From the IMG/VR virus record IMGVR_UViG_3300021142_000016: a DNA stretch of 35,419 nt. The stretch is one strand, 5' to 3'. A program made the translations under genes and the position numbers. Under the pieces are notes generated by a model that saw only the letters and a list, made by a program, of their open reading frames with translations, was not told the DNA's origin and did no database searches. Each line of letters begins with the position of its first letter. Position 1 is the stretch's first letter. Below are positions 6,793 to 35,419 of the stretch, piece by piece. This DNA comes from an uncultured virus (IMG/VR IMGVR_UViG_3300021142_000016). Its lineage: Duplodnaviria; Heunggongvirae; Uroviricota; Caudoviricetes.

Positions 6793-6803
6793 ATTTTTCC
6801 TTA

Positions 6804-8612: not shown

Positions 8613-8613
8613 T

Positions 8614-8940: not shown

Positions 8941-8951
8941 TTTTTATCCTT

Positions 8952-9677: not shown

Positions 9678-9993
9678 TTTTTACCTTTGCATCTGTATAT
9701 GTGATAATTTTATCAAAATCATCTTGAGCTTTTTTATGATTTTTCTTTTCGTCTTCTGTCATATTGACAACTTCAACACTATACCATACGCCATCTTTTT
9801 CATATGGTTCGCATGCAACTAAATGTTGTTTTTCTGAATCATGATCTAGGGTTGGTGTAACCAAGAATGCATTATTTGCCTTTAAGTAATCTTCTGTTGG
9901 AATCCCGTCAGGAAAGCTGACATTAGGAAACAGCTCTGCAGATGTTCCATCTTTTACTACTTCATTGTTTTTATCAACAATAACATAATGCAT
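9667..9993 (-). CDS. Hypothetical tail-associated protein
   Basis: 108 aa; LFPNVSFP motif; coupled to the lectin gene. Confidence 0.65.
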   Translation of the reverse strand: MHYVIVDKNNEVVKDGTSAELFPNVSFPDGIPTEDYLKANNAFLVTPTLDHDSEKQHLVACEPYEKDGVWYSVEVVNMTEDEKKNHKKAQDDFDKIITYTDAKVKNAK

Positions 9994-10003
9994 TTTTTAC
10001 CCC

Positions 10004-10444
10004 TTATACGTATAGATCTGAATATGCGTATCCGCCATATACTGTAGTTCCACCATTTCTTGTGTAGAAATTTAGAACTGTTGTATTGGTTGATAGTACT
10101 GGTGGGGTATTTGAAGCTCCACCGCCGTCCCATTTAACTGAAGCAGGCCATGTAATTGTATAAGCGTTTCCGCCCTTAACTTCTACTTGCCAGAACTGAG
10201 CAGAGTTTGTTGTTTGTGAAATATTTGCAAATGCAACTGTCATGTTTCCGCCAGCTGTGAAGCTGTAGATGTTTGAAAGCGACAGGTCAATTGTTGCTGT
10301 ACCCGCTGCTGCAATTGTTCCCAATGCAGTGTACTGCGATGGGATGTTGAAATATGTATAACCTTGACCATTGATTGGTGCCTGCAAATATGTGTATGTC
10401 CATAATGCTGGTGTCACTGGTTGAGGTGAACTTGTAATTGGCAT
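10004..10444 (-). CDS. Tail fibre-associated beta-sandwich protein
   Basis: TIDLS..N, ITWPASVKW.GG..P.LS, FYT.NGGTT.YG. Confidence 0.65.
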   Translation of the reverse strand: MPITSSPQPVTPALWTYTYLQAPINGQGYTYFNIPSQYTALGTIAAAGTATIDLSLSNIYSFTAGGNMTVAFANISQTTNSAQFWQVEVKGGNAYTITWPASVKWDGGGASNTPPVLSTNTTVLNFYTRNGGTTVYGGYAYSDLYV

Positions 10445-10480
10445 TTTTTATCTCCTAATTTTTATTTATTTACTTAAATT

Positions 10481-11482
10481 TTACTGCTTAACGTAATATG
10501 TAAGAACAATTACTCCAGAACCACCTGTGCCAGAAGAACTGTTCTGTCCTCCTCCACCGCCTGAGCCAGTTCCGTTATTTGCGTTAACGCTTGGTGAACC
10601 TATGTTATATGAGTAACCTATTCCGCCACCGTTAGAGCCACCTGCACCTGCTGCAACACCTGATCCTCCGCCACCGCCTGCAAGACCATAAAGCCCTTCT
10701 CCGCCAAGGCCACCTTGGCCGTCGTACTGGCCTGAACCTGTAGCAGCACCTGAGCCACCACAAGAAGATCCTTCTGAACTAATCTTAGAAGTTCCTCCTA
10801 CAAAGCCACCATATGTACCTTGCCAAAATTGCCAAGCGTTGTACCCTGCTCCGTTAGCTCCTCCGCCACCGCCTGCGCATGACCAAGATGTAATCCAGTT
10901 ACCGCCTCCGCCTCCGCTTGAACCATAACCAGTAATGTTTTGAGCACCTGCACCGCAGGATCCACCATTACCTTGACGACCAGCTTGTGCGTATGCACCT
11001 CCACCGCCTCCGCCGTAAGCTACAATATAAAATGAATCTCCTGAGGATCCAAATGATGAGTTACCACCATTTCCGCCATTTGTATTTGAGTTGCCACCTA
11101 TAGCACCGCCTCCGCCTCCAATAGAGAACGGGATAGATGCTGTTCCATTGTTTGCGTATGCGCTTGTATCTACAATTCTTCTTACGAGTTGTCCTGCGCC
11201 TCCACCGCCACCGCAATAAGCGTTAGAGTTACCTCCACCGCCACCTCCGCCACCACCGACAACTGTAACGTCAATATATGGTGCACATGAAGCTGGTTTT
11301 GTCCAAGAAGATCCGCTAGTAAGCGTAACAGTTTTTTGAACATAAGTTGTGGTTGGTGTTGCAGCTGCAATAGATGCAGATAAAAGTGAAGCAAATGGTT
11401 GTGCTTGAGCAGCTACTGCTGCAGTTGTTGCTGTATCAAGTCCAGGTACAAAAATTTGATTAATTGTGCCATAAGTTGTCAT
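10481..11482 (-). CDS. Glycine-rich tail fibre/adhesin protein B
   Basis: WTKP...VTVVGGGGGG...GGGGGAG...GSGVIVLTY glycine-rich domain. Confidence 0.8.
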   Translation of the reverse strand: MTTYGTINQIFVPGLDTATTAAVAAQAQPFASLLSASIAAATPTTTYVQKTVTLTSGSSWTKPASCAPYIDVTVVGGGGGGGGGNSNAYCGGGGGAGQLVRRIVDTSAYANNGTASIPFSIGGGGGAIGGNSNTNGGNGGNSSFGSSGDSFYIVAYGGGGGGAYAQAGRQGNGGSCGAGAQNITGYGSSGGGGGNWITSWSCAGGGGGANGAGYNAWQFWQGTYGGFVGGTSKISSEGSSCGGSGAATGSGQYDGQGGLGGEGLYGLAGGGGGSGVAAGAGGSNGGGIGYSYNIGSPSVNANNGTGSGGGGGQNSSSGTGGSGVIVLTYYVKQ

Positions 11483-11919
11483 TAGTTAGTTCCTCCTGAA
11501 ACAGCTGATGTTGCTGTTGTATTTGGTGCATCAACAGTTGGTGCCATAGCAGTTGCTGGTGCGTAAACTGTTCCATTTGCTTGTGCAATAATAGACTGTA
11601 CTTCATCAAATGTTGGAATTGTTTCTGCTGCAGGTGCGTTTGGATCTGGGAAGTGAGTTACAGCAGCTGGGACTGGGGGAGCAGTAAATTCTTTAGTTTT
11701 TGCATCATAAGTCCATAGAACAGAAGGTCTTGGAGACATATCTGTAACATCAATAATTGTAAGATCTACCCAATCTGGGTGTGATTTTACCCATTCTTCA
11801 TCATGACAAACTATAATATTGCCAACGATTCCATCTGGGGTAATTAAAGCAAATTCCCTAAACGTATCAAGCATTGGAATACCATTAGAAAAATCTTGTG
11901 TGTTTGTATCTGTTGACAT
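11482..11919 (-). CDS. Fibre-associated/chaperone-like protein
   Basis: ALI...IV.NIIV...HPD...PSV.W.YD, paralogous to 11919-12197. Confidence 0.65.
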   Translation of the reverse strand: MSTDTNTQDFSNGIPMLDTFREFALITPDGIVGNIIVCHDEEWVKSHPDWVDLTIIDVTDMSPRPSVLWTYDAKTKEFTAPPVPAAVTHFPDPNAPAAETIPTFDEVQSIIAQANGTVYAPATAMAPTVDAPNTTATSAVSGGTN

Positions 11920-12197
11920 TATTTAGCTCCTTTAATTTTTGCCAGGGCTGCTTCATAATCCGCAAGCATTTTTTCATGTTCAATCATAAGTTGTGTTTTA
12001 GGTTCTGGTTCTGGAGCAATAAACTTGCTTCCATCATATGACCAGCCTACAGATGGATAATTTGGAAATTCTAGATCTGTGATATTAACATGTGTATGAT
12101 TTAGATAATCTGGATGAGTTTTAAAATCATCCTCTGTATTACCAATTACAATATTTTCTACAATATTTTTTTCATCAATAAGAGCAATTTTTAACAT
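11919..12197 (-). CDS. Fibre-associated/chaperone-like protein
   Basis: ALIDEKNIVENIVI...HPDY...PSVGWSYDGSKFIAP. Confidence 0.65.
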   Translation of the reverse strand: MLKIALIDEKNIVENIVIGNTEDDFKTHPDYLNHTHVNITDLEFPNYPSVGWSYDGSKFIAPEPEPKTQLMIEHEKMLADYEAALAKIKGAK

Positions 12198-12200
12198 TTA

Positions 12201-13199
12201 TTATGCCACCTTCATCCAATAATAAATTATGCAAACACCTGAACCACCGCTGCAGGTTCCTTGTGCGCCCATGTAGCCGCCACCGCCACCGCCACCAGTT
12301 CCGTTTGCTCCTGGGTAACCAGTGTTTGTAATAGTGTTATCTCCACCCATTCCACCACCAGCAGAACCGCCACCTGGGCCAGCTCCACCGCCACCGCCAC
12401 CGCCTGCAAGTCCCATTAATCCTGGACCACCACGACCACCGTCACCTAAATTAGATGTCCAAGAGTTACAGATACCTGCTCCTCCTGAAGAGCTTCCGTA
12501 GCCCCAAGCAAAGCCGCCTGAGTGACCACCGCCTGGAGTTCCGTTAGTTCCGTTAATTTGTGCATTACCGCCTGCGCCACCTGCGCCACCACCGCCACCG
12601 CCTGCTGAGTATTGGTAGCTGTAATAACCACCGCCACCACCACCAGAACCAGAGCCGTAAATTGTATTATAAGTTGGATCACAATAACCATAGTTACCGT
12701 TGTTTCCTTGGTTTTGCTGGTAGCCACCGCCACCGCCACCATATGAAACTAGATAAAACGCTTGCCCAGAAACACCGAATGATGAGTTTCCGCCATTGTT
12801 TCCATTAGCTTGTGAACCTGGTGCGGATCCGCCACCACCAACTCCAATTGAAATACCTTGACCTGGAGAAATTGAAGAAATATCAACATATCTATCAAGA
12901 AGTTGACCTGCTCCTCCACCACCAGAACCAGCGTAAGATGTTGATCCTGTACCGCCAGAACCGCCACCACCAACCAAAACAACTCTTACTGTGCTTGCGC
13001 TGCCTGTTGGGCGAGTCCATGTTCCAGAGCCGTAGAAACGGGTTTCCATTGGAATGTACGCGCCACCAAAAACAGTTGAAAGTGCATTGTTAATATAAGA
13101 AGGTGTAAAAACCTGACTTAATCCCACTGTTGCTGCATTTTGAAGTGTTGTTGTTAGTCCTGGTAGGTAGACATTTCCACCTGTAGCTGATATTGCCAT
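12201..13199 (-). CDS. Glycine-rich tail fibre/adhesin protein A
   Basis: SGTWTRP...VVLVGGGGSGG...GGSGVCIIYY; paralogue of 10481-11482. Confidence 0.8.
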   Translation of the reverse strand: MAISATGGNVYLPGLTTTLQNAATVGLSQVFTPSYINNALSTVFGGAYIPMETRFYGSGTWTRPTGSASTVRVVLVGGGGSGGTGSTSYAGSGGGGAGQLLDRYVDISSISPGQGISIGVGGGGSAPGSQANGNNGGNSSFGVSGQAFYLVSYGGGGGGYQQNQGNNGNYGYCDPTYNTIYGSGSGGGGGGYYSYQYSAGGGGGGAGGAGGNAQINGTNGTPGGGHSGGFAWGYGSSSGGAGICNSWTSNLGDGGRGGPGLMGLAGGGGGGGAGPGGGSAGGGMGGDNTITNTGYPGANGTGGGGGGGYMGAQGTCSGGSGVCIIYYWMKVA

Positions 13200-13222
13200 T
13201 GTATTTCTCCCTTAATTTAAAA

Positions 13223-13543
13223 TCATGAAGATGTTACTTTAACACCTGAAATAAACATTGTTACTGCGTTTGCAGCAGATGCTGCAAGGTTGATAACATC
13301 ACCAGTGTTCATAACTAGCTTAGCATCTAGTACGGTCAAAGACTGTGGTGGGATGCTTAACTGGTAAGCAAGATATGTTCCTGCTATCTGGATTGTAAAT
13401 GTTTGTGCAGCTGATGTAATGTTCATTACGCTGATTGATGTAAGAACGTCTGTCTCTGCAGATGGTGTTGTATACACTGCTGTAGATGCTAGTGGCAGGG
13501 TACCTGCGTAGAATCTCTGTGGTAGACTTGTAATTGTTGCCAT
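13223..13543 (-). CDS. Small virion protein
   Basis: 106 aa; paralogue of 8614-8940. Confidence 0.7.
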   Translation of the reverse strand: MATITSLPQRFYAGTLPLASTAVYTTPSAETDVLTSISVMNITSAAQTFTIQIAGTYLAYQLSIPPQSLTVLDAKLVMNTGDVINLAASAANAVTMFISGVKVTSS

Positions 13544-13544
13544 G

Positions 13545-13877
13545 TTAGAATGCTCCCATATTTGAATTAATTACGTAATTATTAATAGCGGTTTGAATCG
13601 CTGATTGTCCCGCGGTTACTGCTGTTCCAATAGCTGCGACTTGAGTCGCTGCTGCTGAGTTAATTGATGTTACTCCACCTGATGTTGCATTGGAAATATT
13701 TGCGAGTTGGGTGTTTGTTGCAGCAACAACGTCGTTTACCCCAAGAAGATTTCCCATTGATTCAAGTGCTTTTGCCAAAAATACCAAATCCTGTGCTGCC
13801 AATGTGGCTGAGCTTAGGTTATTTACCTGATTTTGAAAAATGGTAATTTGACTTTGTAGGGTTGCGTAGTTTGCCAT
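13545..13877 (-). CDS. Hypothetical coiled-coil virion protein
   Basis: GAGGTG RBS; similar to the N-terminus of 15488-16165. Confidence 0.7.
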   Translation of the reverse strand: MANYATLQSQITIFQNQVNNLSSATLAAQDLVFLAKALESMGNLLGVNDVVAATNTQLANISNATSGGVTSINSAAATQVAAIGTAVTAGQSAIQTAINNYVINSNMGAF

Positions 13878-13897
13878 TTGTTATTCACCTCTCGTAT

Positions 13898-13906
13898 AGT
13901 ATAGCA
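13898..13906 (-). promoter_or_regulatory. Extended -10 promoter TGC-TATACT
   Basis: Intergenic, upstream of RBS GAGGTG. Confidence 0.55.
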
Positions 13907-13920
13907 TAACTGTTTATAAA

Positions 13921-14532
13921 TCAGTTATTGTTTCCACTTGTATTTGTTGCATTTAGTACTGGCCCAGTGGCGAATGGTGGAGGCACCATACCTCCTGGAT
14001 TGTGGTTTATTGAAGGATCAACTTCTGGTGGAGTTGGCCAATCAATATTGTGATCTGTAATTGTTGTTGGAAGATCTCTAAGTGCCTGGCGATAATCTTG
14101 CCATGCTTTCTTTTTATCTGCATCCATCGGAGCAGTTTCTACCCAGTCTGTTGAATTAAGAAGCACTTTTCTATGATTTCTTGCATGTGTAAGTGCTGCA
14201 GCAGTTGTTACTTCTGTCCACCATTGAACATGCTCACCATCAGTCATGTGTCTTGGAGAATTAGTTTTTTCATCCAAAATCATATGTTTTCCTTCTACAA
14301 AATAATCATCAACTTCATGCCAAACAGAACCATCTGACGCATTATCTGTTGGAGTTTCAACAGCTTGTCTTGTTTCAATTTGAATTTGTGAATCTGGATG
14401 AAATCTAGCATATTTTTTTAATTGAAGTGGTTCTGGAAGAGGTTTTGCATTTGCAACGTCAACAGAAATCTCTAAAGCATCTGGGTTTGTTAAAAAATCT
14501 TGTACTTGATCTGCTGTAATATCGTTAGCCAT
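13921..14532 (-). CDS. Tail fibre assembly chaperone-like protein
   Basis: R..R..LL..TDW...WQDYRQALRDLP...IDWPTPP. Confidence 0.85.
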   Translation of the reverse strand: MANDITADQVQDFLTNPDALEISVDVANAKPLPEPLQLKKYARFHPDSQIQIETRQAVETPTDNASDGSVWHEVDDYFVEGKHMILDEKTNSPRHMTDGEHVQWWTEVTTAAALTHARNHRKVLLNSTDWVETAPMDADKKKAWQDYRQALRDLPTTITDHNIDWPTPPEVDPSINHNPGGMVPPPFATGPVLNATNTSGNNN

Positions 14533-15488
14533 TATCTATCTCCATATAAGGTTGCTGCTCTATTCCATACAGAATACGAGTCAATAGTGCTTGTATAATT
14601 GTTATTTGTAATATCATCATATGTCCATGCTGCCATAGTCATACGCATATCTGGTCCGATCCAATAGTTTGGAGGGAATGTTCCTTGCATATTGTAATAA
14701 GAAGTATTTTCATCCCAAAGATAAGTGTTGTATCCACTAGTCCAATAATAAAATGTATTACACATTAACACTGCTGCCGTTGTTTGTGCTGGAAGAGTAA
14801 ATGTTCCAGATATACCGTAGTTTGAGTTTGTACTTCCAGTATATGTTGCCAAGTTAGTCCAGTTTACCGTAGTTGCTGTTGAATATTTATTTGTATTTGG
14901 AATTCCAACTTGCATACCACCGCCATCATAACCAGAACACCAATATGAGCTTTGAAGAGCCCAAACTGAAACGTTAATTGATGATGTTGGGTGATAATTT
15001 CTAACAAACATAACGCGAGAACCAAATGGGCCATAGCATGTATTTTGAGGATATGTGTGAAGCATCTTGTGACTTGCACCAGTTTGGTTATTTGTTCCCC
15101 AATCTAGTTGCTTACGTGTTCCCGCCCACGTTTTCATATTTTCATTTTGATGACGATATCCACCAAGTGCATACCAAAATGCTCTTTCAGCATCCCATGG
15201 CTGAGTTCCTGTAAGATATGTATAAAAGTTTGTCCAATCATCCGAGTTATTCCATGAATAGTTACCCATAGCTGAGTTACCGCGATTATTTACTGAATAA
15301 ATTGATGGTACTGCATATGGAAGACGAGATGCATCAGAAACTTCTTTAATAAGATTGTCAGTTCCAGTTGTCACGCCGAGTGAAGCTGCGCTAATTCCAA
15401 GTCCAGATGCCGTTACGTTTGCTGCTGATTGCAACTCAGCAAGAGTAATTCCTTGAGTTTGAAAGTTTAAATCATTTAAATTAGGCAT
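14532..15488 (-). CDS. Hypothetical virion protein (aromatic/Asn/Thr-rich)
   Basis: Long ORF with TAATG coupling at both ends. Confidence 0.7.
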   Translation of the reverse strand: MPNLNDLNFQTQGITLAELQSAANVTASGLGISAASLGVTTGTDNLIKEVSDASRLPYAVPSIYSVNNRGNSAMGNYSWNNSDDWTNFYTYLTGTQPWDAERAFWYALGGYRHQNENMKTWAGTRKQLDWGTNNQTGASHKMLHTYPQNTCYGPFGSRVMFVRNYHPTSSINVSVWALQSSYWCSGYDGGGMQVGIPNTNKYSTATTVNWTNLATYTGSTNSNYGISGTFTLPAQTTAAVLMCNTFYYWTSGYNTYLWDENTSYYNMQGTFPPNYWIGPDMRMTMAAWTYDDITNNNYTSTIDSYSVWNRAATLYGDR

Positions 15489-26631: not shown

Positions 26632-27630
26632 TTAAAGATTTTTATTAATTTGCTTTAGTCTTTTAACGGCTGGAGCAGAAACTTTTTCCCAGCTGTATTT
26701 TTCATGAATAATAAAAGCATTTTTATAAGCAAGATTAGAAAGATTTTCATAGTTATCAAAGCAATTTTGCATATATTCTTTTAATTGAGCATATGATGGT
26801 TTTAACATCAATCCTGGGTGAGTTGATGGCCAAGGGGATGGTGCCCAGGAAGAATCCAATGGCATTGTTATTAAATCTTTGTAGGATGCCCAATCTGCTG
26901 TACAAATGGTTGGCATGCCTTGAGCCATAGCTTGAAGCGGGTTAAAGCCAAATCCCTCTCCCCATGAAGGATAAACAAAAACATCACATAGGTTATACAA
27001 ACCATTCATTTGCTCTACAGATAAAAATGATTCAATAATCTTAATGTTTTTATAAACAGCATCTGGCGATCCAATAACTTCACCATTTTTAGAATTAAAA
27101 ATTTTTGTAGTATTTATATTGCTGCATTTTAAAACCAACTCGTATTTTGGGTTATTGCCAAAAAGACTAGCAAACGCATCAACAACCATTTGAGCATCTT
27201 TTCTAGATGCTGGTTCTCCAACATGCAAAAATCTAAACGGGCGATCAGGATTTAATTCTCTTTTCTTTGGGATCCATTTATCTTCAATTCCATGTTCATA
27301 AACAAAAATAGGTTTGCTTGTATGTTTTGAATAAATATCTGCAACCCATTCTGATGTTGCCCAAATTTCATCTGGTATTGTATTCATAACAGGCTTCCAA
27401 CCAGGAAGAAGCTCTGTTGACTCCCATGGTGTATAAGCAATTTTGTATTGATCTTTGCCAAATGAATAATTACTTGGTTGAACAAATGCTATACCAATTT
27501 TAGGTTCACTTGATTTAATTAATGATTCAATACCTTGTTTTTTAAATTCTTCAAATATATGAAATGATGCTTCGCCATATCCGACATTGCGATCCATATA
27601 TTCTGGCGCACCCGTCCAAGATACTTTCAT
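26632..27630 (-). CDS. Glycosyltransferase family 4 (GT-B)
   Basis: TPWEST, FLHVG....RK, DVFVYPSWGEGFGFNPLQAMAQGMPTI. Confidence 0.9.
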   Translation of the reverse strand: MKVSWTGAPEYMDRNVGYGEASFHIFEEFKKQGIESLIKSSEPKIGIAFVQPSNYSFGKDQYKIAYTPWESTELLPGWKPVMNTIPDEIWATSEWVADIYSKHTSKPIFVYEHGIEDKWIPKKRELNPDRPFRFLHVGEPASRKDAQMVVDAFASLFGNNPKYELVLKCSNINTTKIFNSKNGEVIGSPDAVYKNIKIIESFLSVEQMNGLYNLCDVFVYPSWGEGFGFNPLQAMAQGMPTICTADWASYKDLITMPLDSSWAPSPWPSTHPGLMLKPSYAQLKEYMQNCFDNYENLSNLAYKNAFIIHEKYSWEKVSAPAVKRLKQINKNL

Positions 27631-27643
27631 TTACGCTCCCGAC

Positions 27644-27672
27644 TTGTTTTTCCCAGTATATCATGATACGAT
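27644..27672. promoter_or_regulatory. Overlapping divergent promoters
   Basis: Minus TGA-TATACT (27663-27655); plus TTGTTT-N17-TACGAT with TG extension; shared palindrome TATCATGATA. Confidence 0.5.
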
Positions 27673-27704
27673 TGTTTTTACTACTCTTTCCCTAGGAGGT
27701 ACAT

Positions 27705-28379
27705 ATGAACAATATGAACAAAGCAAGGATAAGAACAGCGTGGACAATGATATGTGTGAGTATTATCACATTGATTAGTGGAGTAAATTCTCCAGTTCAT
27801 GCATTAACAGCACCAACTATCGTGTATAATAAATATATATTATATATTAATAAATATACTAATTTAGTTAATATTAAAGATATTATTAATATAGATATAA
27901 ATAAAGCAAATTCTAGTAATACAGTTTATTTAATTAATGATCTGTCCACTGGAAAAACTTTTCAAATGCCCGCTTATAGCAAAATGCTTACATTAAACCA
28001 AAGAGTAGATCAAAGGGTAATAATCTCAAGACTAGCAAACGCAATCAAATCCCAGGAAACGGGAGGCGTTGGCGCATACCTGCGTCAGTCTTACTCCAGT
28101 AGTGCATGTGGTGCTTACCAGTACATGTCAACTTCATGGAATAACTTTATGGGCTACAAGAATGCTTGCGATGCCCCAGAATGGGTACAGGATGCACGTA
28201 TGGTCAGCGAACTAAAATCGTCATACGCCGTGTACCATGACTGGAGAAAAGCAGTAGCAGCACACCTGTATCCATCAAGAGCAGGCAATATGGCTACTTG
28301 GAACAAACCAGTTCCAGGAAATCCAACTGTCCGTGAATACGTCACATCTGTGTTTCAGAAAGCGAACATAGCGTACTGA
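27705..28379 (+). CDS. Secreted lysozyme-like/lytic transglycosylase protein
   Basis: N-terminal hydrophobic signal (..VHA); AIKSQETGG, SSACGAYQYM..SW, PEWVQD, YVTSV; AGGAGG RBS. Confidence 0.8.
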   Translation: MNNMNKARIRTAWTMICVSIITLISGVNSPVHALTAPTIVYNKYILYINKYTNLVNIKDIINIDINKANSSNTVYLINDLSTGKTFQMPAYSKMLTLNQRVDQRVIISRLANAIKSQETGGVGAYLRQSYSSSACGAYQYMSTSWNNFMGYKNACDAPEWVQDARMVSELKSSYAVYHDWRKAVAAHLYPSRAGNMATWNKPVPGNPTVREYVTSVFQKANIAY

Positions 28380-28615
28380 TGAAAATTAAAATTTTATCTC
28401 AGTATTATCAATTGGCTCAGGCGGGTAGGGTAAAACCTCTCGCCTGTCCCATGCATCCAGAAGATCCCGATGCAATTTTTCCATTAATGGTAGTTGAAGA
28501 AAACGAAAAGGTTATGCTACAATGTCTAGCATGCAGCTATGTAAATATGGCTGGTCAACAACTTTATGAAAATCTTATAAAATTAATCAGGGAAGCAGAA
28601 AATGAAAGAACCTAA
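28379..28615 (+). CDS. Small zinc-binding protein
   Basis: CPMH...CLAC. Confidence 0.7.
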   Translation: MKIKILSQYYQLAQAGRVKPLACPMHPEDPDAIFPLMVVEENEKVMLQCLACSYVNMAGQQLYENLIKLIREAENERT

Positions 28616-29105
28616 TATTGGAGATTACTTTGTAGTTAGAACTACAGGTATAGCAGCAAGATTAATTCAACTTGGAACATGGTCTAAGTGGAATCATGCT
28701 GGAATTTACATTGGAAATGGGCAAATTGTTGAAGCCCGCCCTTCTGGCGTTTCTGTTTCACCACTTTCTAAATATGACAATAATCAAATAATTTGGAATA
28801 CGGGCCACGATGGTTCACTTACCACTACAGAAAGAAAAACCCTTGTTGAATTTGCTTTGGGTTTTGTTGGAGATGGTTACGGAATATGGTCAATCATTGC
28901 ATTAGGATTTAAATGTCTTACTTTTGGTATTCCACTACTTCCAGCAAATTGGATGGCAATTCGTGAAAAGCGTGTAATTTGTTCACAACTTGTTGCTTGG
29001 TCATATTCTCACGTTCACATTAAACTTTCAAAAAAGCCTCATGCGCTTGTACGACCAAAGGATCTAGCAGAAAGATTGTCACATGGATCTTTTACCAATC
29101 GTTGA
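28602..29105 (+). CDS. Permuted papain-like amidase (YaeF/YiiX, NlpC/P60 superfamily)
   Basis: GD, WNHAGIYIG...VEA before ICSQLVAWSY (His before Cys). Confidence 0.88.
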   Translation: MKEPNIGDYFVVRTTGIAARLIQLGTWSKWNHAGIYIGNGQIVEARPSGVSVSPLSKYDNNQIIWNTGHDGSLTTTERKTLVEFALGFVGDGYGIWSIIALGFKCLTFGIPLLPANWMAIREKRVICSQLVAWSYSHVHIKLSKKPHALVRPKDLAERLSHGSFTNR

Positions 29106-29586
29106 AGGAAGATCTTGCGGGGATTGTACAAAGTGTTGTGAAGGTCATTTAAGGGCTGATATACAATTAAAAGACGGTAGCCCTAAAGCTTGGATGGGTT
29201 TAAACGAAGAAGGATTTCAACCTTGCCCATTTGTTAAAACAGGAGTTGGTTGCACATCTTATGATGTACGTCCAGATATACCTTGCAAAGTATTTAAATG
29301 TGATTGGCTTACAAATCCAGACATGCCAGAATCTTTTAAGCCATCAAGATCAAATGCTATATTTACAACTCGCACAATTAACGGTATTGAGTACACAAAG
29401 TTAATTGAAGCTGGAAGAAAGCTAGACTCAGAAGTTTTATCATGGGCATTTGAGTATTGCCTTTCAAACGGAATTAATTTTTCGTGGAACGTGTTAGAAA
29501 ATATTTTTTGGTTGGGCTCTGAAGAGTTTAATGAGATGATGGATAAAGATTACCCATTACTTAAAAGGGAGCTTGAAGGAAAATGA
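29083..29586 (+). CDS. CxxCxxCC (YkgJ-like) metal-cluster protein
   Basis: CGDCTKCC...CPF....GC..Y..RP...C..F.C.WL. Confidence 0.8.
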   Translation: MDLLPIVEGRSCGDCTKCCEGHLRADIQLKDGSPKAWMGLNEEGFQPCPFVKTGVGCTSYDVRPDIPCKVFKCDWLTNPDMPESFKPSRSNAIFTTRTINGIEYTKLIEAGRKLDSEVLSWAFEYCLSNGINFSWNVLENIFWLGSEEFNEMMDKDYPLLKRELEGK

Positions 29587-29873
29587 GAGCATGGATTGAA
29601 GTTTATCATCAAGATGTTAATATAGAAGGTTTTGACCTTCCTGAAAACAAACATGAGATTCTTATTCAAGATGAAAACCACAACACAATTATGAGTATAC
29701 CAATTCAAAGACCTTTGCCTTGCATGGGTATTAATGTTGTTGATGGAGAATTGCTAAGTAAAGCCACACAAAGCTTTCAGATAGAAAATAGAAGAAGTGT
29801 ACTTAATCCGATGGCACTAGAGCTTGCTGGTATTGAACTAAACCCAGAATGGATGCACAATGAGGAGTGGTAA
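29583..29873 (+). CDS. Hypothetical protein
   Basis: ATGA overlap, 96 aa. Confidence 0.65.
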   Translation: MRAWIEVYHQDVNIEGFDLPENKHEILIQDENHNTIMSIPIQRPLPCMGINVVDGELLSKATQSFQIENRRSVLNPMALELAGIELNPEWMHNEEW

Positions 29874-29875
29874 TA

Positions 29876-30079
29876 ATGGATGATGATGTTCTAATTAACA
29901 TTAGAGAACTGCTCGGTGCTACCTATATTCAAAATCAAAGAATATATGACATGCTTTCTATCATTGCAGATAAACTGGGCGCAGATGCTATTGGTTTATC
30001 TAAGCTTCATGAAAAAGGAGAAGTTCTTGCTCCCGAACCATCTTTTATTTTTAATGTAAGTAGCAATGATGAGCAATAA
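29876..30079 (+). CDS. Hypothetical protein
   Basis: GAGGAG RBS; helical 67 aa. Confidence 0.65.
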   Translation: MDDDVLINIRELLGATYIQNQRIYDMLSIIADKLGADAIGLSKLHEKGEVLAPEPSFIFNVSSNDEQ

Positions 30080-31325
30080 AAAAAAGATTGCAGTAGTAGG
30101 ACAAGGCACTGCTGGGATACAGGCAGTTGCATATTTTCTTAAATGGTTAAGAAGTGATTGGGAAGTGCATTCAATTGTTGATCCGACAAAGCCAATACTA
30201 GGTATTGGAGAATCTACTAATCCATCTTTTATTAAAACTATTGAGCAAGGAACAAGAACAAATATTTTTGATATCCTGCAAAACAAAGATCTTGACTCAA
30301 CCATTAAGCTGGGAACTTTAATTGAGGGCTGGCGGGAGAAAGAATTTATTAATCCTTTATTAGGATCCAATGCAGCCATACATATGAATACTTTTAAGCT
30401 TGGAGAATGGGCAATACCAAAGTTTAAAAAAGTATGGGGAGATAAGTTTGTAGAAGTATTTGGTACAGTTTCTGCTATGATTAATTATCAAGACAAAGCT
30501 GTAGTAGTATTGGATGGCAAAGAACTTGATTATGATTTTATTATTGATTGTACTGGTTTTCCAAGCAACTACGATGACTACACCGTTTGGCAGAACCCAA
30601 CAAACCATGGATTAGTCCATAATGTGCAGGTGGGCGAGGAACACTGGAATCATACGAAACACGTTGCAACAAAAGACGGGTGGATGTTTGCAGTTCCATT
30701 AACATCTCGTGTAAGTTATGGATATATGTTCAATGACACCATTACTGACCCGATTGAGGCGAAAAAGAACTTTTCAGAATTAATATCTATACCTTTAGAA
30801 TATATGGATGATATTGAATACAAGTTTGTATCATTTTGGGCAAACAGATGTATTGAAGGTCGCATTATTAAAAATGGCAATAAAGCAGCATTTTTTGAAC
30901 CAATGTTTGCTAACTCTTTATTTATGTATGACTCTATCAATAAGATAGCTTTACAGCATATAAGCGGTTACATGGCTTTAGATGCAGCAAATACGCATAT
31001 TCAGGTTATGATTGAAAAAATTAGAGAAAATATTTGCTTTTATTATCATGGCGGATCACAATACGATACTCCATTTTGGCAAAATGCTGTTAGTGTAACA
31101 AAACCTGTAGTTTTTGACAGTCAACCATTTTTTCAGGTATATCAGAAGATGCAAATGGCAAACAAGTATGGTTATACTGAAGAAATTGGCTGGGGTTTTG
31201 ATGAAGAAGGACTTAGAAAGATAGATGAAAACTTTGAATATCATTATTTCAGCGACGGAATAAGTGAGCCGAAAAAGGAATTTGAGCAGGAATTAAAAAG
31301 CAAAGGAATAAACACATTATGGTAA
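30066..31325 (+). CDS. Tryptophan halogenase-like flavoprotein
   Basis: VVGQGTAG, GIGEST, TIKLG, DFIIDCTGF, GWMFAVPL..R.SYGY, GN.AAFFEP. Confidence 0.82.
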   Translation: MMSNKKKIAVVGQGTAGIQAVAYFLKWLRSDWEVHSIVDPTKPILGIGESTNPSFIKTIEQGTRTNIFDILQNKDLDSTIKLGTLIEGWREKEFINPLLGSNAAIHMNTFKLGEWAIPKFKKVWGDKFVEVFGTVSAMINYQDKAVVVLDGKELDYDFIIDCTGFPSNYDDYTVWQNPTNHGLVHNVQVGEEHWNHTKHVATKDGWMFAVPLTSRVSYGYMFNDTITDPIEAKKNFSELISIPLEYMDDIEYKFVSFWANRCIEGRIIKNGNKAAFFEPMFANSLFMYDSINKIALQHISGYMALDAANTHIQVMIEKIRENICFYYHGGSQYDTPFWQNAVSVTKPVVFDSQPFFQVYQKMQMANKYGYTEEIGWGFDEEGLRKIDENFEYHYFSDGISEPKKEFEQELKSKGINTLW

Positions 31326-31528
31326 ATCCTTTAGATTTAATAAATGGGTCGGAAAGAGTGAGCGACGCAGTAAAAGAAGAAAGAATGTCCATATGTCGGG
31401 CATGCCCAGAACTCTTTCAATTTACTACATCCTGCAAGAGATGTGGATGTTTCATGAATGCAAAGACAAGATTAGCAGAAGCTGAATGTCCATTAAAAAA
31501 ATGGGGGGCAGTTGAAAGAAATCAGTGA
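31319..31528 (+). CDS. Small Cys-rich protein (DUF6171-like)
   Basis: R..IC..C...C..CGCF...KT......CP..KW. Confidence 0.75.
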   Translation: MVNPLDLINGSERVSDAVKEERMSICRACPELFQFTTSCKRCGCFMNAKTRLAEAECPLKKWGAVERNQ

Positions 31529-32294
31529 CATTGTGACGGACATCACATATATTATAGATGGTGATCTATGTCACATATATACCGATAAGCACACATTTTC
31601 CATACCTGCATCAAATTTAGATCGTTTAAGGTATGGGTTAGAAGCTCATTATACCCAAACAAAGATCCTAGAGGATGCAACACCAGAGGAGTTAGCCATA
31701 TTGCGTAAAATGAAGCCTAGAAATAATGCCCTAGAGGAAGTTAACTATCAAATAGGAAGAAAAGGCTATAATTCTAGAGTCATTCTGGCGAATGACCTTG
31801 TTTCCCGCCTTCCATATATGTCACAATCAAGAAATCGCAATGGAAAACAGCATATTGCAGATTCTAGATGGAAAAATGCTATCAAAAATTCAAATTTTAA
31901 GGTTTTATCCCTTATTGATTGGTATAAGGATGAAGAAATCTTCATTAAAGAGCTATTTCCAGATGTTGAATGGACAAAAGGTTCATTTGCCATATCTCCA
32001 TGTCATATTTATCCAGCTAAAAAAGATAGAGGAGAAGATTCTTGGACTCCCGACAAAATTTGTAGAGATTTAAGCATCATAAATAAAGTTTTTGATAAAA
32101 TTTCAGCATCTGATCTAGCTGGAAAGCATGCTATTACTACAGAAGATGCTAGAATAGCTTTAGATTACCTAGAATCTTTCTCTTGGGATGATCTTTCAAT
32201 CTCCCGCCAAGTTTTAGCGTATGTTTTAAAACGTAGATTGATGCTAGGATTCTACTCACATGTTGCTTTTACCGATATAGACTTAGGAATATAA
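31512..32294 (+). CDS. Hypothetical protein
   Basis: 260 aa ORF, TTG start with GGGGG upstream. Confidence 0.65.
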   Translation: MKEISDIVTDITYIIDGDLCHIYTDKHTFSIPASNLDRLRYGLEAHYTQTKILEDATPEELAILRKMKPRNNALEEVNYQIGRKGYNSRVILANDLVSRLPYMSQSRNRNGKQHIADSRWKNAIKNSNFKVLSLIDWYKDEEIFIKELFPDVEWTKGSFAISPCHIYPAKKDRGEDSWTPDKICRDLSIINKVFDKISASDLAGKHAITTEDARIALDYLESFSWDDLSISRQVLAYVLKRRLMLGFYSHVAFTDIDLGI

Positions 32295-32419
32295 TGCCAA
32301 AAAGATATTTTACTCAAAGTAAGATCTATTTTAGAGATCTTCCACGATTTAAAGAAGATAAATCTTATACTAGTTTTGCATCTAGGTTAAAAAATTTACT
32401 ATCCCGCCTTTTCAGCTAA
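32294..32419 (+). CDS. Small basic hypothetical protein (41 aa)
   Basis: Not in track; TAATG overlap, AGGA RBS; MPKRYFTQSKIYFRDLPRF... Confidence 0.55.
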   Translation: MPKRYFTQSKIYFRDLPRFKEDKSYTSFASRLKNLLSRLFS

Positions 32420-32548
32420 TTCTCAGAATCACTTTTGATCAAAATGTTAATGGGCATTTATTTTGGATGATGCAACTTTGCGAGCCGATTTCAAAAAAAT
32501 AATAGTACGCCCGAAATGTCCGAATTGATATGGTATGCACCCGTATAA

Positions 32549-32564
32549 TGTGGTGTACATCACA
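32549..32564. promoter_or_regulatory. CRP/GlxR-like box 1
   Basis: TGTGG-TGTACA-TCACA (9/10 to TGTGA-N6-TCACA). Confidence 0.6.
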
Positions 32565-32605
32565 AAAATATTTTTTAAAATGTCCGATTTGTTAGCATTT
32601 TCAAC

Positions 32606-32634
32606 TTGATTTTCTCAAAATAATATGCTAAACT
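32606..32634 (+). promoter_or_regulatory. Housekeeping-sigma promoter
   Basis: TTGATT-N17-TAAACT with TG extension. Confidence 0.7.
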
Positions 32635-32687
32635 TTCAGTATTGAAAGATTAAAGGTTAATCTTCAGAAAAAAGAAAGGTAGATAAA

Positions 32688-32912
32688 ATGTCTACACTAA
32701 ATGAATACTATAATGAAATCCGTTCCGATATTGCTAAAGACTTTGGTCTTGAGGCTGGTGGCTTTGCTCCCCGCCCTAAGTTAATGCCTATCCAAATTGC
32801 TCAGCGTATTGTCGCTAAGTATCCTAGCATAGATAACGGCACCCGATGGGGTCAGCCTAATCCTAAGGCGTTAGAAATCGCTAAGCGTTATCACGCTTTG
32901 TTTGTGGCGTAA
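32688..32912 (+). CDS. Small hypothetical protein (74 aa)
   Basis: AGAAAGGT RBS, own promoter. Confidence 0.75.
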   Translation: MSTLNEYYNEIRSDIAKDFGLEAGGFAPRPKLMPIQIAQRIVAKYPSIDNGTRWGQPNPKALEIAKRYHALFVA

Positions 32913-32918
32913 GTCACA
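32903..32918. promoter_or_regulatory. CRP/GlxR-like box 2
   Basis: TGTGG-CGTAAG-TCACA. Confidence 0.55.
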
Positions 32919-32946
32919 ATCAAGACACGGCGTGTCGGGTTGATAA

Positions 32947-32968
32947 TGTCAGCCCTATATGCTAGACT
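32947..32968 (+). promoter_or_regulatory. PafBC/RecA-NDp-like promoter 1
   Basis: TGTCAG-CCCTATATGC-TAGACT; also TTGATA -35 at 32940. Confidence 0.75.
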
Positions 32969-33078
32969 AGCGTCATCAAATTAAATAAAGAAAAATCCTG
33001 TGAGCCCTACATAGTAGGCAAATAATCAGGTCAAGGAAAAAGATTAGAAAAACTAATCAAAAAAAGAAAGGTGACAAA

Positions 33079-33231
33079 ATGTCATACTCGTTTGATAATA
33101 CAAATAAAGACCGCTGGTCAGAATTAAATGATGAATACCAATCTATGCTAGATGAATTGGCTACCTCAAATGATGAGGTTGCTAGTGTCTTCGTAGATGT
33201 AGAAGACTTTGACCTAGATGAGGTGCTATAA
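33079..33231 (+). CDS. Small highly acidic protein (50 aa)
   Basis: Not in track; AGAAAGGT RBS; MSYSFDNTNKDRWSELNDEYQSMLDELATSNDEVASVFVDVEDFDLDEVL. Confidence 0.75.
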   Translation: MSYSFDNTNKDRWSELNDEYQSMLDELATSNDEVASVFVDVEDFDLDEVL

Positions 33232-33348
33232 GTGATAGTTCTAACTTACATAATCCGCACCATAATGCTACTTGCCATAGTGCCTATGTCTATGCTAATG
33301 TATGCTATCTATCAAGATGTCAAGAATTGGGGTAATAATGAAAACTAA
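33232..33348 (+). CDS. Small membrane peptide (38 aa)
   Basis: Not in track; GAGGTG RBS, GTG start; MIVLTYIIRTIMLLAIVPMSMLMYAIYQDVKNWGNNEN. Confidence 0.55.
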   Translation: MIVLTYIIRTIMLLAIVPMSMLMYAIYQDVKNWGNNEN

Positions 33349-33532
33349 GATTATCGTACTAGGATTAGCACTCGCACTAATTCCCGCCGTTGCTAATGCG
33401 AAGACTCACAAAATAACTAGTGTTAATCGCTACACCTACGGGTATCACCGCACAGTTCACATTTATTGCCCGTTTCAAGGTTGTAAATCTAGTTTCTCGC
33501 ACTACACGGGAACGAACGGCTATAATAACTAA
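33338..33532 (+). CDS. Small secreted protein (64 aa)
   Basis: MKTKIIVLGLALALIPAVANA signal peptide; GGGGT RBS. Confidence 0.65.
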   Translation: MKTKIIVLGLALALIPAVANAKTHKITSVNRYTYGYHRTVHIYCPFQGCKSSFSHYTGTNGYNN

Positions 33533-33537
33533 ACAAA

Positions 33538-33559
33538 TGTCAGTGGTCTATGGTAGACT
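33538..33559 (+). promoter_or_regulatory. PafBC/RecA-NDp-like promoter 2
   Basis: TGTCAG-TGGTCTATGG-TAGACT; no canonical -35. Confidence 0.78.
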
Positions 33560-33594
33560 ACTATCAACAACAACAAAAGAAAAGGACAAAATAA

Positions 33595-33756
33595 ATGACA
33601 CTAGCAAATAAGACTTACCAAGTAGGCGATTTGTTCACAACTCAAAAGAGCAAGGTAACAGGAACAATCGTAGCGATTGAACCAATTAACGCTAACACTA
33701 CTCGCGTGCTTCTAGATGTAGACGGCGAGGAACGCTTCACAACTGTGAAGTTCTAA
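33595..33756 (+). CDS. Small beta-barrel-like protein, paralogue A (53 aa)
   Basis: Not in track; AAAGGA RBS; MTLANKTYQVGDLFTTQKSKVTGTIVAIEPINANTTRVLLDVDGEERFTTVKF. Confidence 0.8.
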   Translation: MTLANKTYQVGDLFTTQKSKVTGTIVAIEPINANTTRVLLDVDGEERFTTVKF

Positions 33757-33839
33757 GTTTGGCAAATTGCCAAATATCCTGAGCAAGATATAAAAAGGCT
33801 CACCAACCCAACAAAAGAAAAAAAGAAAAGGAAAACTAA

Positions 33840-34010
33840 ATGACTCTCCAAGGATACACATATCAAATCGGTGACTTGTTCACAACCTCAAATGTAGGTG
33901 TAACTGGTCGCATCAACTCTTTCGCACCTGTTAGCAAAACTGTAACTCGTGTTGGTCTAACTCTAGCAAATGGCTCAAAGCGTTTCGCTATGGTAAAAAC
34001 ATCAAAGTAA
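33840..34010 (+). CDS. Small beta-barrel-like protein, paralogue B (56 aa)
   Basis: Not in track; AAAGGA RBS; MTLQGYTYQIGDLFTTSNVGVTGRINSFAPVSKTVTRVGLTLANGSKRFAMVKTSK. Confidence 0.8.
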   Translation: MTLQGYTYQIGDLFTTSNVGVTGRINSFAPVSKTVTRVGLTLANGSKRFAMVKTSK

Positions 34011-34091
34011 TGCTATAATAAATCTTGGCGGGACTGCCCACTAACATTGACACTCCCGCCATCTACTAATAAAAAGGATAGTAAATAAAAA

Positions 34092-34271
34092 ATGATGACA
34101 AGAAAAGACTACGTTGCAACCGCTGAAATTATTAACTCATACGCAACTGAAATTAAATTAGAAGTGTTAGAAGATCTAGTTAACGATTTTATTGTAATGT
34201 TTGCAGATGATAACGAGCGTTTTGATGGTGATAGGTTTTGGGATGAATGTTTCAAAAACGTAAATCATTAA
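34092..34271 (+). CDS. Small acidic hypothetical protein (59 aa)
   Basis: Not in track; TGCTATAAT at 34011, AAAGGA RBS; MMTRKDYVATAEIINSY...FADDNERFDGDRFWDECFKNVNH. Confidence 0.75.
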   Translation: MMTRKDYVATAEIINSYATEIKLEVLEDLVNDFIVMFADDNERFDGDRFWDECFKNVNH

Positions 34272-34384
34272 TTGAAAAAGTAAAACGTATTCAAGAGCTT
34301 AGGCGTAGCAATGCTGCTACGCCTTTGCAAAATAAAAAAAAATACAATCGCAAAACAAAATATAAAAATCAACTTGACAATTAG
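34247..34384 (+). CDS. Small very basic peptide (45 aa)
   Basis: Not in track; MFQKRKSLIEKVKRIQELRRSNAATPLQNKKKYNRKTKYKNQLDN. Confidence 0.55.
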   Translation: MFQKRKSLIEKVKRIQELRRSNAATPLQNKKKYNRKTKYKNQLDN

Positions 34385-34428
34385 CCAAATTTTTGGCGCG
34401 CCAAATCGGACAAATTGGACATTTTGAA

Positions 34429-34444
34429 TGTGATTAAGGACACA
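34429..34444. promoter_or_regulatory. CRP/GlxR-like box 3
   Basis: TGTGA-TTAAGG-ACACA. Confidence 0.55.
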
Positions 34445-34484
34445 ATTTACACGCTCCAAATAATGAGATAAACCCTTAAGTTAC

Positions 34485-34513
34485 TAGACAGTAGCGATTT
34501 TTTGTGTTATACT
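34485..34513 (+). promoter_or_regulatory. Housekeeping-sigma promoter
   Basis: TAGACA-N17-TATACT with TG extension. Confidence 0.65.
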
Positions 34514-34576
34514 TCCAGTATTAAAAATTAAATAAATAAAAAAAGTTTGACGACACACGGCGTGTCGCCTTGAAAA

Positions 34577-34598
34577 TGTCGGTGGTCTATGATAGACT
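34577..34598 (+). promoter_or_regulatory. PafBC/RecA-NDp-like promoter 3
   Basis: TGTCGG-TGGTCTATGA-TAGACT, exact TGTCGG-N10-TAnnnT; TTGAAA -35 at 34570. Confidence 0.8.
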
Positions 34599-34632
34599 AA
34601 CGATAGTTAGAAAATAAAGAAAGGTGGTCAAA

Positions 34633-34827
34633 ATGACTACACTAGAAAATGTAAATCTTGGTAAAGTATTGGGTATCTCTGCTCAGTTAGAAAATCGTAT
34701 GGTTCACGATTTTAATAATGGAGGATTAAAGTCTACTTATGGACTTAATACTCGTCAGCGTGTTATCGCTATAAAAATCTTCTTAGGTGGAAATGCCCCT
34801 AAGTGCTACTGTGTGGAGTGTATTTAA
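34633..34827 (+). CDS. Small hypothetical protein with C-terminal CxCxxC
   Basis: AGAAAGGTGG RBS then ATG 34633. Confidence 0.75.
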   Translation: MTTLENVNLGKVLGISAQLENRMVHDFNNGGLKSTYGLNTRQRVIAIKIFLGGNAPKCYCVECI

Positions 34828-34832
34828 CACTC

Positions 34833-34854
34833 TGTCAGTCCCCCCTGATATAAT
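34833..34854 (+). promoter_or_regulatory. PafBC/RecA-NDp-like promoter 4
   Basis: TGTCAG-TCCCCCCTGA-TATAAT. Confidence 0.78.
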
Positions 34855-34888
34855 TAACCCAATAAACAAAAAAGAAAGGTGGCAACTA

Positions 34889-35113
34889 ATGCTAATCTCA
34901 GAAGCCTTAGAAGGCAAATATGTAAAGTCCTCAAAAGGACAAGGCATAATCCAGTATGCAGATTTCCGAAAGGATATGCACCACTCTACCCCCGAGGGTT
35001 ATCTTGCTTATGCTTGCAAGGTTCGCCCTACTTATAACCCTGAAGTGCATAAGTTTATTCCAGAAGATTTCTGGACAACAATTTATGTCGGATTGGATAG
35101 TGAATTACTATGA
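34889..35113 (+). CDS. Small hypothetical protein (74 aa)
   Basis: AGAAAGGTGG RBS then ATG 34889; the track start at 34787 would span the promoter. Confidence 0.75.
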   Translation: MLISEALEGKYVKSSKGQGIIQYADFRKDMHHSTPEGYLAYACKVRPTYNPEVHKFIPEDFWTTIYVGLDSELL

Positions 35114-35316
35114 CAATTAAACTTGGTGGGCTAGGGCAGACTATTTCTGCCTATTGCCCAGTATGCTCAGAAAAAATGACTCATATGTGTATCGCTACAC
35201 TTGGAACGGGTCGCACAATTCGCTATGCTTGGGAATGCCAGCCTTGCGAATTATCTCTTAAATCCGACAAAGATGGCTATGCTCATCTCTTAACAGAAAT
35301 GGCTTACTATGTCTGA
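35110..35316 (+). CDS. Small zinc-ribbon protein
   Basis: CPVC...CQPC; ATGA overlap. Confidence 0.7.
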   Translation: MTIKLGGLGQTISAYCPVCSEKMTHMCIATLGTGRTIRYAWECQPCELSLKSDKDGYAHLLTEMAYYV

Positions 35317-35419
35317 TAAAATTTTCATATGTGATGAATGTGATACCCTTGCCACAATGTCAGTGCAAGGTGATACAATAACTATAAATAAATGTAAGTG
35401 CTTAACTTTAGAATGGAGC
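35309..35419 (+). CDS. Small Cys-containing protein, runs off window
   Basis: MSDKIFICDECDTLATMSVQGDTITINKCKCLTLEWS. Confidence 0.45.
   Translation, partial: MSDKIFICDECDTLATMSVQGDTITINKCKCLTLEWS
35358..35379 (+). promoter_or_regulatory. PafBC/RecA-NDp-like promoter 5
   Basis: TGTCAG-TGCAAGGTGA-TACAAT. Confidence 0.7.

Follow-up and report, generated by a model that had tools for sequence, protein, structure and literature searches.

Predicted PafBC-type promoter arrays in the small-gene arms of an uncultured actinophage family

We characterized a 35,419-base stretch of DNA (the window) from the uncultured Caudoviricetes virus IMGVR_UViG_3300021142_000016, in which five promoter-like sites of the layout TGTCRG-N10-TANNNT accompany a block of small genes, the small-gene arm. 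From their sequence, these sites are somewhat more probably than otherwise real phage promoters of the PafBC-dependent (RecA-NDp) class, borrowed from the host. The wider reading, to which we assign a probability of roughly 0.5, is that a widespread family of ~110-kb phages, infecting low-GC aquatic actinobacteria, has its entire small-gene arm, with 5-14 promoters per genome, driven through sigma adaptation by the ssDNA-sensing host activator PafBC, and that the promoter array may also compete with the PafBC-driven repair and defense-like genes of the host. The window is the minus strand of bases 1-35419 in a viral record 46,576 bases long and estimated to be 42% complete, and because its position 35419 is the end of that record, the small-gene region is incomplete.

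Five sites in the window and their match to the RecA-NDp class

The motif TGTCRG-N10-TANNNT was found exactly five times in the window (Table 1), always on the + strand, which is the coding strand, and all inside 2.4 kb. No additional copy was encountered when the remainder of the 46,576-base record was scanned. Among 100 dinucleotide shuffles of the window the mean was 0.55 matches (standard deviation 0.76, maximum 3) and none reached five, and 200 shuffles of the whole 46.6-kb record gave a mean of 0.80 and a maximum of 4. When the gap was varied from 6 to 14 nucleotides (nt) across the record, N10 yielded five matches, N14 one, and all other gaps none. It was also noted that a TG stands one base 5' of the -10 hexamer in 5/5 sites, forming a TG-extended -10. 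An earlier reading of this DNA, the first-pass annotation, had listed five exactly spaced, TG-extended sites on the coding strand; all five positions were recovered, with N10 enriched, and its estimate of well under 0.1 chance matches per 2.5 kb agrees with the shuffles, which correspond to ~0.04.

Four of the sites are intergenic and precede a ribosome-binding site (RBS), as that annotation had also described. Their -10 hexamers end 110, 35, 34 and 34 nt 5' of the ATG codons at 33079, 33595, 34633 and 34889, and RBS words of the GAAAGGTG or AAAGGA type precede each of these start codons. The fifth site lies within a 37-codon Cys-rich open reading frame (ORF) that runs from 35309 to the window end, where it is truncated by the end of the contig. 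In a 73,470-base relative, G001, the homologous ORF has a site at the corresponding position, with an RBS and then the next gene behind it.

An older form of the RecA-NDp motif is written tTGTCRgtg-8nt-TAnnnT, and TGTCRGTG was read in 3/5 window sites. The consensus of PafBC promoters from chromatin immunoprecipitation sequencing is tGTCgg(N10)tA(N3)T, the 3' part being the SigA -10; the helix-turn-helix domain of PafB contacts positions -23 to -28 (the '-26 element'), with the GTC triplet read by R46 and R50; and the promoters are without a -35, a mechanism that the authors liken to T4 MotA/AsiA (PMC8635444). PafBC was bound to RNA polymerase (RNAP) on promoter DNA only after binding single-stranded DNA (ssDNA) (PMC11804915), and PafBC promoters of Mycobacterium and other Actinobacteria are described as being read by 'sigma adaptation' (PMC8635444, PMC6789036, PMC11804915). 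The window sites fit the published consensus, including the fixed 10-nt gap, and the identification of the motif in the first-pass annotation was upheld. Counted from the -10 hexamer alone, the phage TGTCRG would lie at about -28 to -23. Reading TGTCRG as a displaced -35 was rejected, as only 11 nt separate TTGTCA from the -10, well below the 16-18 of a -35. No LexA-type box (GAAC-N4-GTTC) was found near the promoters; the single match in the window, at 9518, lies inside a structural gene.

Table 1. Predicted promoters and other elements of the small-gene arm (window coordinates; aa, amino acids)
Feature	Position	Strand	Description
Promoter 1	32947..32968	+	TGTCAG-N10-TAGACT, TG extension; TTGATA at 32940-32945, 17 nt before -10 (hybrid type)
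Promoter 1, predicted target	33079-33231	+	50-aa gene, reached via 110-nt leader
Promoter 2	33538..33559	+	TGTCAGTGG..TGGTAGACT; weak 4/6 -35-like hexamer TAAACA at 18 nt
Promoter 2, predicted target	33595-33756	+	53-aa gene; sites orthologous to promoter 2 in L008, L010, L011, L012, L013
Promoter 3	34577..34598	+	TGTCGGTGG..TGATAGACT; TTGAAA at 34570-34575, 17 nt before -10 (hybrid type)
Promoter 3, predicted target	34633-34827	+	64-aa gene
Promoter 4	34833..34854	+	TGTCAGTCCCCCCTGATATAAT; -35 absent (2/6); begins 5 nt past stop of upstream gene
Promoter 4, predicted target	34889-35113	+	74-aa gene
Promoter 5	35358..35379	+	TGTCAGTGCAAGGTGATACAAT; inside Cys-rich small ORF 35309-35419, open at contig end
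Small-gene arm	33079..35419	+	nine ORFs of 50-76 aa; cut by contig end
Arm ORFs	33079-33231, 33302-33532, 33595-33756, 33840-34010, 34092-34271, 34633-34827, 34889-35113, 35110-35316, 35309-end	+	
Second promoter class, without TGTCRG	32606..32634	+	TTGATT-N17-TAAACT, TG extension; before 74-aa gene 32688-32912
Site like 32606..32634	34485-34513	+	TAGACA-N17-TATACT
Palindrome GACACGGCGTGTC	32924..32936		just 5' of promoter 1; related imperfect copy at 34549-34569, 5' of promoter 3
Conserved leader hairpin	32997..33030	+	after promoter 1, in 110-nt leader; invariant internal loops TGAGCC / GGCAAATAAT

Relatives of the phage and genomes of the host phylum

The GC content of the phage is ~38% in the window and 33-38% across the phage family. 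Cultured phages gave no match to a megablast of 27000-35419, and a 36-nt promoter query returned chance matches alone (E at least 1), all to coding sequence of phages not related to this one. Over 99% of its length, the portal (591-2180, minus strand) shares 52-53% identity with portals of large Streptomyces phages such as Tomas, Wakanda and Blueeyedbeauty, and a 1180-aa structural protein shows ~35% likeness to cyanomyophage counterparts. PASTA domains, possibly cell-wall-binding modules, were detected in two proteins of the structural block (4234-4893 and 6804-8645; 46.7 and 57.0 bits, Pfam), and the latter protein has an additional weak match to the Hint domain.

An IMG/VR search with the 260-aa protein adjoining the arm recovered seven loci at 61-66% identity, one of them in G001. 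The near-complete relative G004:C31 is a 109,918-base contig binned in a metagenome-assembled genome (MAG) labeled as a cyanobacterium. Compared with the window, the portals of these two large relatives are 83-87% identical and their ribonucleotide reductases (RNR) 87-90%; 21/48 window ORFs match G001 and 13/48 match G004:C31, in the same gene order. Both relatives encode WhiB (38.1 bits in G001 and 43.1 bits in G004:C31; cut-off 23.6), a protein that work on 'Ca. Nanopelagicales' phages describes as restricted to Actinobacteriota and as marking actinophages (PMC10202952). Because WhiB is found in both large relatives, and given the PASTA proteins and the 52% portal identity to Streptomyces phages, the predicted host is an actinobacterium. 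The phage GC of ~38% indicates that it is not a mycobacterium.

Several other routes to the host were considered. RNR similarity was discarded, as the best matches are phage contigs binned in MAGs and hence no host evidence. Matches to the phage GroES (5/401 genomes, at 40-45% identity) and to the phage WhiB (1/301, namely a MAG holding phage contigs) were uninformative. Contigs of the phage family (L018-L028) sit in MAGs labeled Bacteroidia, Saccharibacteria, Brevundimonas, Aquiluna, cyanobacterium and others, and these labels are not host evidence.

It was noted that G004:C31 also encodes the mycobacteriophage family GP88, PolIII alpha, DnaG, DnaB and ThyX, together with RNA ligases, PNKP, Ro60, GroES and thioredoxin. 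A 184-aa phage protein (L033:18652-19206 in G004:C31; L014:3338-3892 in G001) has a weak N-terminal match to a proteasome subunit (29.5 and 17.3 bits) and adjoins the thioredoxin, WhiB and GroES genes. In actinobacteria, pafBC is linked to the Pup-proteasome locus.

Extending the motif scan from the whole record to the relatives found 1-14 copies in the relatives, in the same small-gene arm. The motif lies downstream of the 260-aa gene in 7/7 loci, with 1, 3, 1, 2, 1, 10 and 1 copies, on the + strand throughout. In G001, a 9-kb small-gene block holds 11 copies, all on a single strand (1.16 in shuffles), and G004:C31 has 14, compared to 1.60 in shuffles, all co-oriented with the genes: 12/14 are on the + strand at 4484-14787, in a 17.7-kb small-gene arm, and 2/14 on the minus strand.

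Across 37 unique family sites the consensus is AA-TGTC(A/G)G-T(G/C)(C/G)..T.TG.TA.A(A/C)T. The T and G of the TG extension are present in 36/37 and 37/37 sites, the fourth -10 position is A in 36/37, and at motif position 5, A is found in 27 sites and G in 10. No -35 is fixed across these sites, and the -35 score is at most 3/6 in 21/37. By a crude script applied to 39 site instances, the first long ORF begins 18-130 nt 3' of the -10 and is preceded by an RBS-like word in 31/39 (none in 6, off the contig in 2). When all TG-extended -10 sites of three arms were assessed, their mismatches to TGTCRG numbered either zero or at least two (nearly all at least three), and exactly one in none. The GTC core is present in every site by design of the search, and it is this mismatch gap that forms an independent point. 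The second class of TG-extended -10 sites often has TTGAYT 17 nt upstream, which makes a canonical promoter (TTGAYT-N17-TGnTAnAnT).

A stricter pattern, TGTCRGTGG-N4-TG-N-TA-N-A-N-T, was scanned in IMG/VR and occurred in at least 172 stretches, often with 2-6 matches per contig on one strand, a total that is uninformative by itself, as a rough estimate gives a few hundred chance matches in a collection of this size. Among the matches listed, an RBS and ATG followed within 70 nt in 161/194 strict sites, and the median locus GC was 40%.

For the host side, a sample of 301 genomes centered on MAG G006 of the class was examined. Seven of these (G248, G014, G037, G043, G034, G029 and G286) are flagged as unpublished, and no specific claim rests on them. 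The form TGTCGGTG-N8-TANNNT was found in 264/301, at up to 52 per genome, with a reversed control of 0-2 in nearly all. Nineteen sampled genomes are 1.3-1.5 Mb in size, most of them assembled as one contig whose first 15 kb have a GC of 44.5-47.8%, and five small genomes (G220, G250, G265, G172 and G067; 1.3-1.5 Mb, 45-48% GC) were taken further. All five carry an adjacent pair of WYL genes, pafB-pafC. In G220 the best matches of this pair are the PafB-like and the PafC chain in the RNAP-PafBC structure of M. smegmatis, 7P5X (E 1.4e-35 and 1.2e-30), and the RMFERDK stretch containing R46 and R50 is conserved.

The motif also stands upstream of recA in 5/5 of the small genomes. It reads TGTCAG in 4/5, and there a LexA-type box, TCGAACAGATGTTCG, comes immediately after the -10; three of these four have the TG extension; in G067 the LexA-type box lies 22 nt further on. 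These sequences indicate that low-GC actinobacteria use the same layout, with the phage-like A at position 5, on bona fide damage-inducible recA. The first-pass annotation proposed a check for pafBC in the predicted host; the tandem pair was present in 5/5 small low-GC genomes, which are candidate relatives of the host and not the proven host.

Each small genome was further noted to have motif copies clustered in one 20-46-kb region (G220:C1 386-425 kb, G250:C1 411-433 kb, G265:C1 431-460 kb, G067:C1 477-507 kb and G172:C1 914-961 kb), often with an ATG 6-7 nt after the -10 (leaderless). Among the products of downstream genes are a type II DNA methyltransferase, a DrmD/DpdE-like SNF2 helicase, a HATPase_c_3 protein, a trypsin-like protease, an RNase T-like exonuclease and TPR proteins, and a PbeA-like helicase, Fpg/Nei, NERD-UvrD and Phd/YoeB were found nearby. 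From its gene content, this cluster looks like a PafBC-type repair and defense-like island.

Host PafBC weighed against other readers

If the arm is run from host PafBC, host RNAP with the housekeeping sigma-A would read the phage promoters aided by PafBC, that is, by sigma adaptation. PafBC would act after binding ssDNA, which could arise from injection, phage replication, recombination or nuclease attack, and the small-gene arm would be switched on or boosted by the LexA-independent alarm of the host. Because about a third of the family sites have a -35 and all but one have the full TG, the arm probably has a basal, PafBC-independent level to which PafBC adds a boost. Canonical promoters are also present in the arm, and for this reason a two-step program is plausible, in which they would fire first and the PafBC-type promoters once ssDNA appears. 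The proposal that the phage is wired into the host damage response is partly backed by the motif, the actinobacterial lineage, and the pafB-pafC pair and recA motif of the small genomes. Its description of the driven genes as 'early' and 'counter-defence' has no basis past their size and position, the nine small arm proteins having 0 matches in PHROGs or Pfam.

A number of observations weigh against this reading. A -35 hexamer of at least 5/6 at 16-18 nt is present in 2/5 window sites and 11/37 family sites over a background of 1.9%, and the published PafBC class is defined as being without a -35, unlike these hybrid phage sites (PMC8635444). The near-invariant TG extension is not in the published consensus, and the word 'extended' is absent from PMC8635444. 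Since the extension is near-invariant and some sites have a -35, firing without PafBC is possible. Genome-wide counts of the loose motif do not exceed those of its reversed control in the five small genomes, where only position and context mark real sites. The phage GC (33-38%) is 7-15 points below that of the same genomes, which may therefore not be hosts. Many small phage proteins are unnamed, names being available for just a part of the proteome, and this leaves room for a non-WYL factor. Finally, the Streptomyces phages Blueeyedbeauty, Tomas and Wakanda, the closest cultured relatives, have 0, 4 and 1 motif matches compared to 2, 2 and 0 in the reversed control; on these counts, inheritance of the motif from such relatives was rejected.

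The best-placed alternative, though in our judgment an unlikely one, is that a phage-encoded factor reads TGTCRG and redirects sigma-A to the -26 box as MotA/AsiA do, with the likeness to PafBC being convergence or mimicry. Such a factor would be a small protein, either expressed from the canonical promoters that lead the arm or brought in with the virion. The second, canonical class of the arms could indeed make it first, most arm proteins are without a family, and the sites have a flavor of their own, with AA before TGTC, the near-invariant TG and the A at the fourth -10 position. However, the element, its spacing and its TG extension also stand before host recA with a LexA box, where there is no phage factor; a host reader therefore exists, and a base-exact copy of the host site is more easily explained by use of the host protein.

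The WYL, MotA and AsiA families were also not seen in the phage genomes. A six-frame search for WYL (PF13280) found none in G000 or G001, and in G004 only a weak match on another contig, C61, and not on C31. No WYL, sigma, MotA or AsiA was among the Pfam matches of 42 ORFs from the window and its contig, nor among those of 132 ORFs from the first 76000 bases of G004:C31 (minimum length 60 aa), a set that skips three ORFs spanning locus borders. From these searches, with no WYL domain in G000, G001 or G004:C31, the fallback suggestion that the phage encodes its own WYL activator was rejected.

Slightly less probable still is that the sites are self-sufficient extended -10 promoters and that the TGTCRG array serves mainly as a sink, drawing PafBC-RNAP away from host repair and defense-like genes, with tens of sites per genome multiplied by replication. 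The near-invariant TG and the -35 at a third of the sites speak for this, as does the same promoter type before the host genes for the DrmD/DpdE-like SNF2 helicase, type II DNA methyltransferase, HATPase_c_3 protein, RNase T-like exonuclease and others. Yet a sink needs neither co-orientation with genes nor placement 18-130 nt before a start codon, and all sites have both. PafBC is also reported to bind only with RNAP on promoter DNA (PMC11804915), which makes it difficult to distinguish a sink from a working promoter; both may hold.

The notion of a by-product, either a compositional or coding accident or a lineage spacer preference of sigma-A with no dedicated reader, can point to the site at 35358 in coding sequence, where the peptide ATMSVQGD is conserved in G001, and to how common the loose motif is by chance in mid-GC genomes, but it is close to refuted by the 0/100 and 0/200 shuffles that reach the observed counts, N10 as the only enriched gap, the two site classes (zero or at least two mismatches) and the complete strand bias.

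Other elements of the arm and comparison with known systems

Further features of the arm were characterized alongside the promoters (Table 1). The proteins of 33595-33756 (53 aa) and 33840-34010 (56 aa) are tandem paralogs with a common TYQ(V/I)GDLFTT and have homologs of 75-86% identity in G001; a PafBC-type promoter stands only before the first of the two. The palindrome GACACGGCGTGTC and its imperfect copy lie 5' of both hybrid, -35-bearing promoters, and the palindrome was also encountered in L008 near 4360. Its right arm equals TGTCG, and at host recA, GCGACAC precedes TGTCAG by 8-10 nt in 4/5 genomes. This palindrome may be an operator or the site of a second reader. Counterparts of the leader hairpin were found in L008 (about 4436-4486), L010 (about 5250-5300) and L009 (about 6247-6294), and its outer stem has two-sided changes in 3/7 predicted pairs across two sequence types. 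Another word, ATGTCCGAWTTG, occurs at 32516-32527 and 32580-32591 (+) and at 34402-34413 and 34411-34422 (-), in the two long intergenic regions of the arm. It has five window matches at no more than one mismatch compared to 1.36 expected, is kept 5' of promoters in L007 and L008, and is probably a second regulatory word.

The literature on PafBC with phage, mycobacteriophage, prophage or actinophage, as covered by titles and the starts of abstracts, describes no phage PafBC regulon, in agreement with what the first-pass annotation had stated, and the same coverage contained no phage promoters of the PafBC class and no phage 'sigma adaptation' promoters. Rafique et al. 2025, as cited in PMC12848934, reportedly deals with pafBC and mycobacteriophage resistance and may bear on this claim of novelty. 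PafBC is already known as a host DNA-damage regulator; what would be new here is that a phage deploys arrays of promoters belonging to an established host class.

If the reading is true, this would be the first virus program driven by a host WYL alarm protein, and the phage would achieve a simple timing of a gene block without a sigma factor or recognizable activator: it would wait for ssDNA or create it, and the host alarm would do the switching. A tug-of-war would be predicted with host genes under the same promoters, including those for the DISARM/Dpd-like helicase and the DNA methyltransferase. The promoter type is common in low-GC viral contigs and may matter for abundant freshwater bacteria.

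Compared to known PafBC promoters, the phage sites share the 22-nt layout, the 10-nt gap, the GTC core and the housekeeping -10, and most appear to be without a -35; the identical layout is present on recA of small low-GC actinobacteria that carry pafB-pafC. They differ in lying in a phage genome, in arrays of 5-14 and before tiny genes without a family, and also in having A rather than G at position 5 (27/37), the near-invariant TG, a -35 in ~30% and no LexA box.

T4 middle promoters combine a MotA box at -30 with a sigma-70 -10, in the 'sigma appropriation' by MotA/AsiA. They are similar in that phage promoters keep the host -10 but have a box near -26/-30 in place of the -35. However, T4 supplies its own activator and co-activator, whereas the box described here equals the site of a host activator. 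The Stanwilliamsviridae phages of Streptomyces (Blueeyedbeauty, Tomas and Wakanda; about 126-134 kb) resemble this family in the 52% portal identity and in size class, the near-complete relative being ~110 kb, and differ in not using the motif.

The WYL activators and repressors DriD of Caulobacter, a Moraxellaceae WYL regulator, CapW and BrxR are similar, as reported, in that an ssDNA-sensing WYL protein ties together damage, mobile elements and defense. Their regulons belong to proteobacterial hosts or prophages and involve different binding sites, whereas the present phage, a large and apparently lytic actinophage, seems to tap the regulon of its host.

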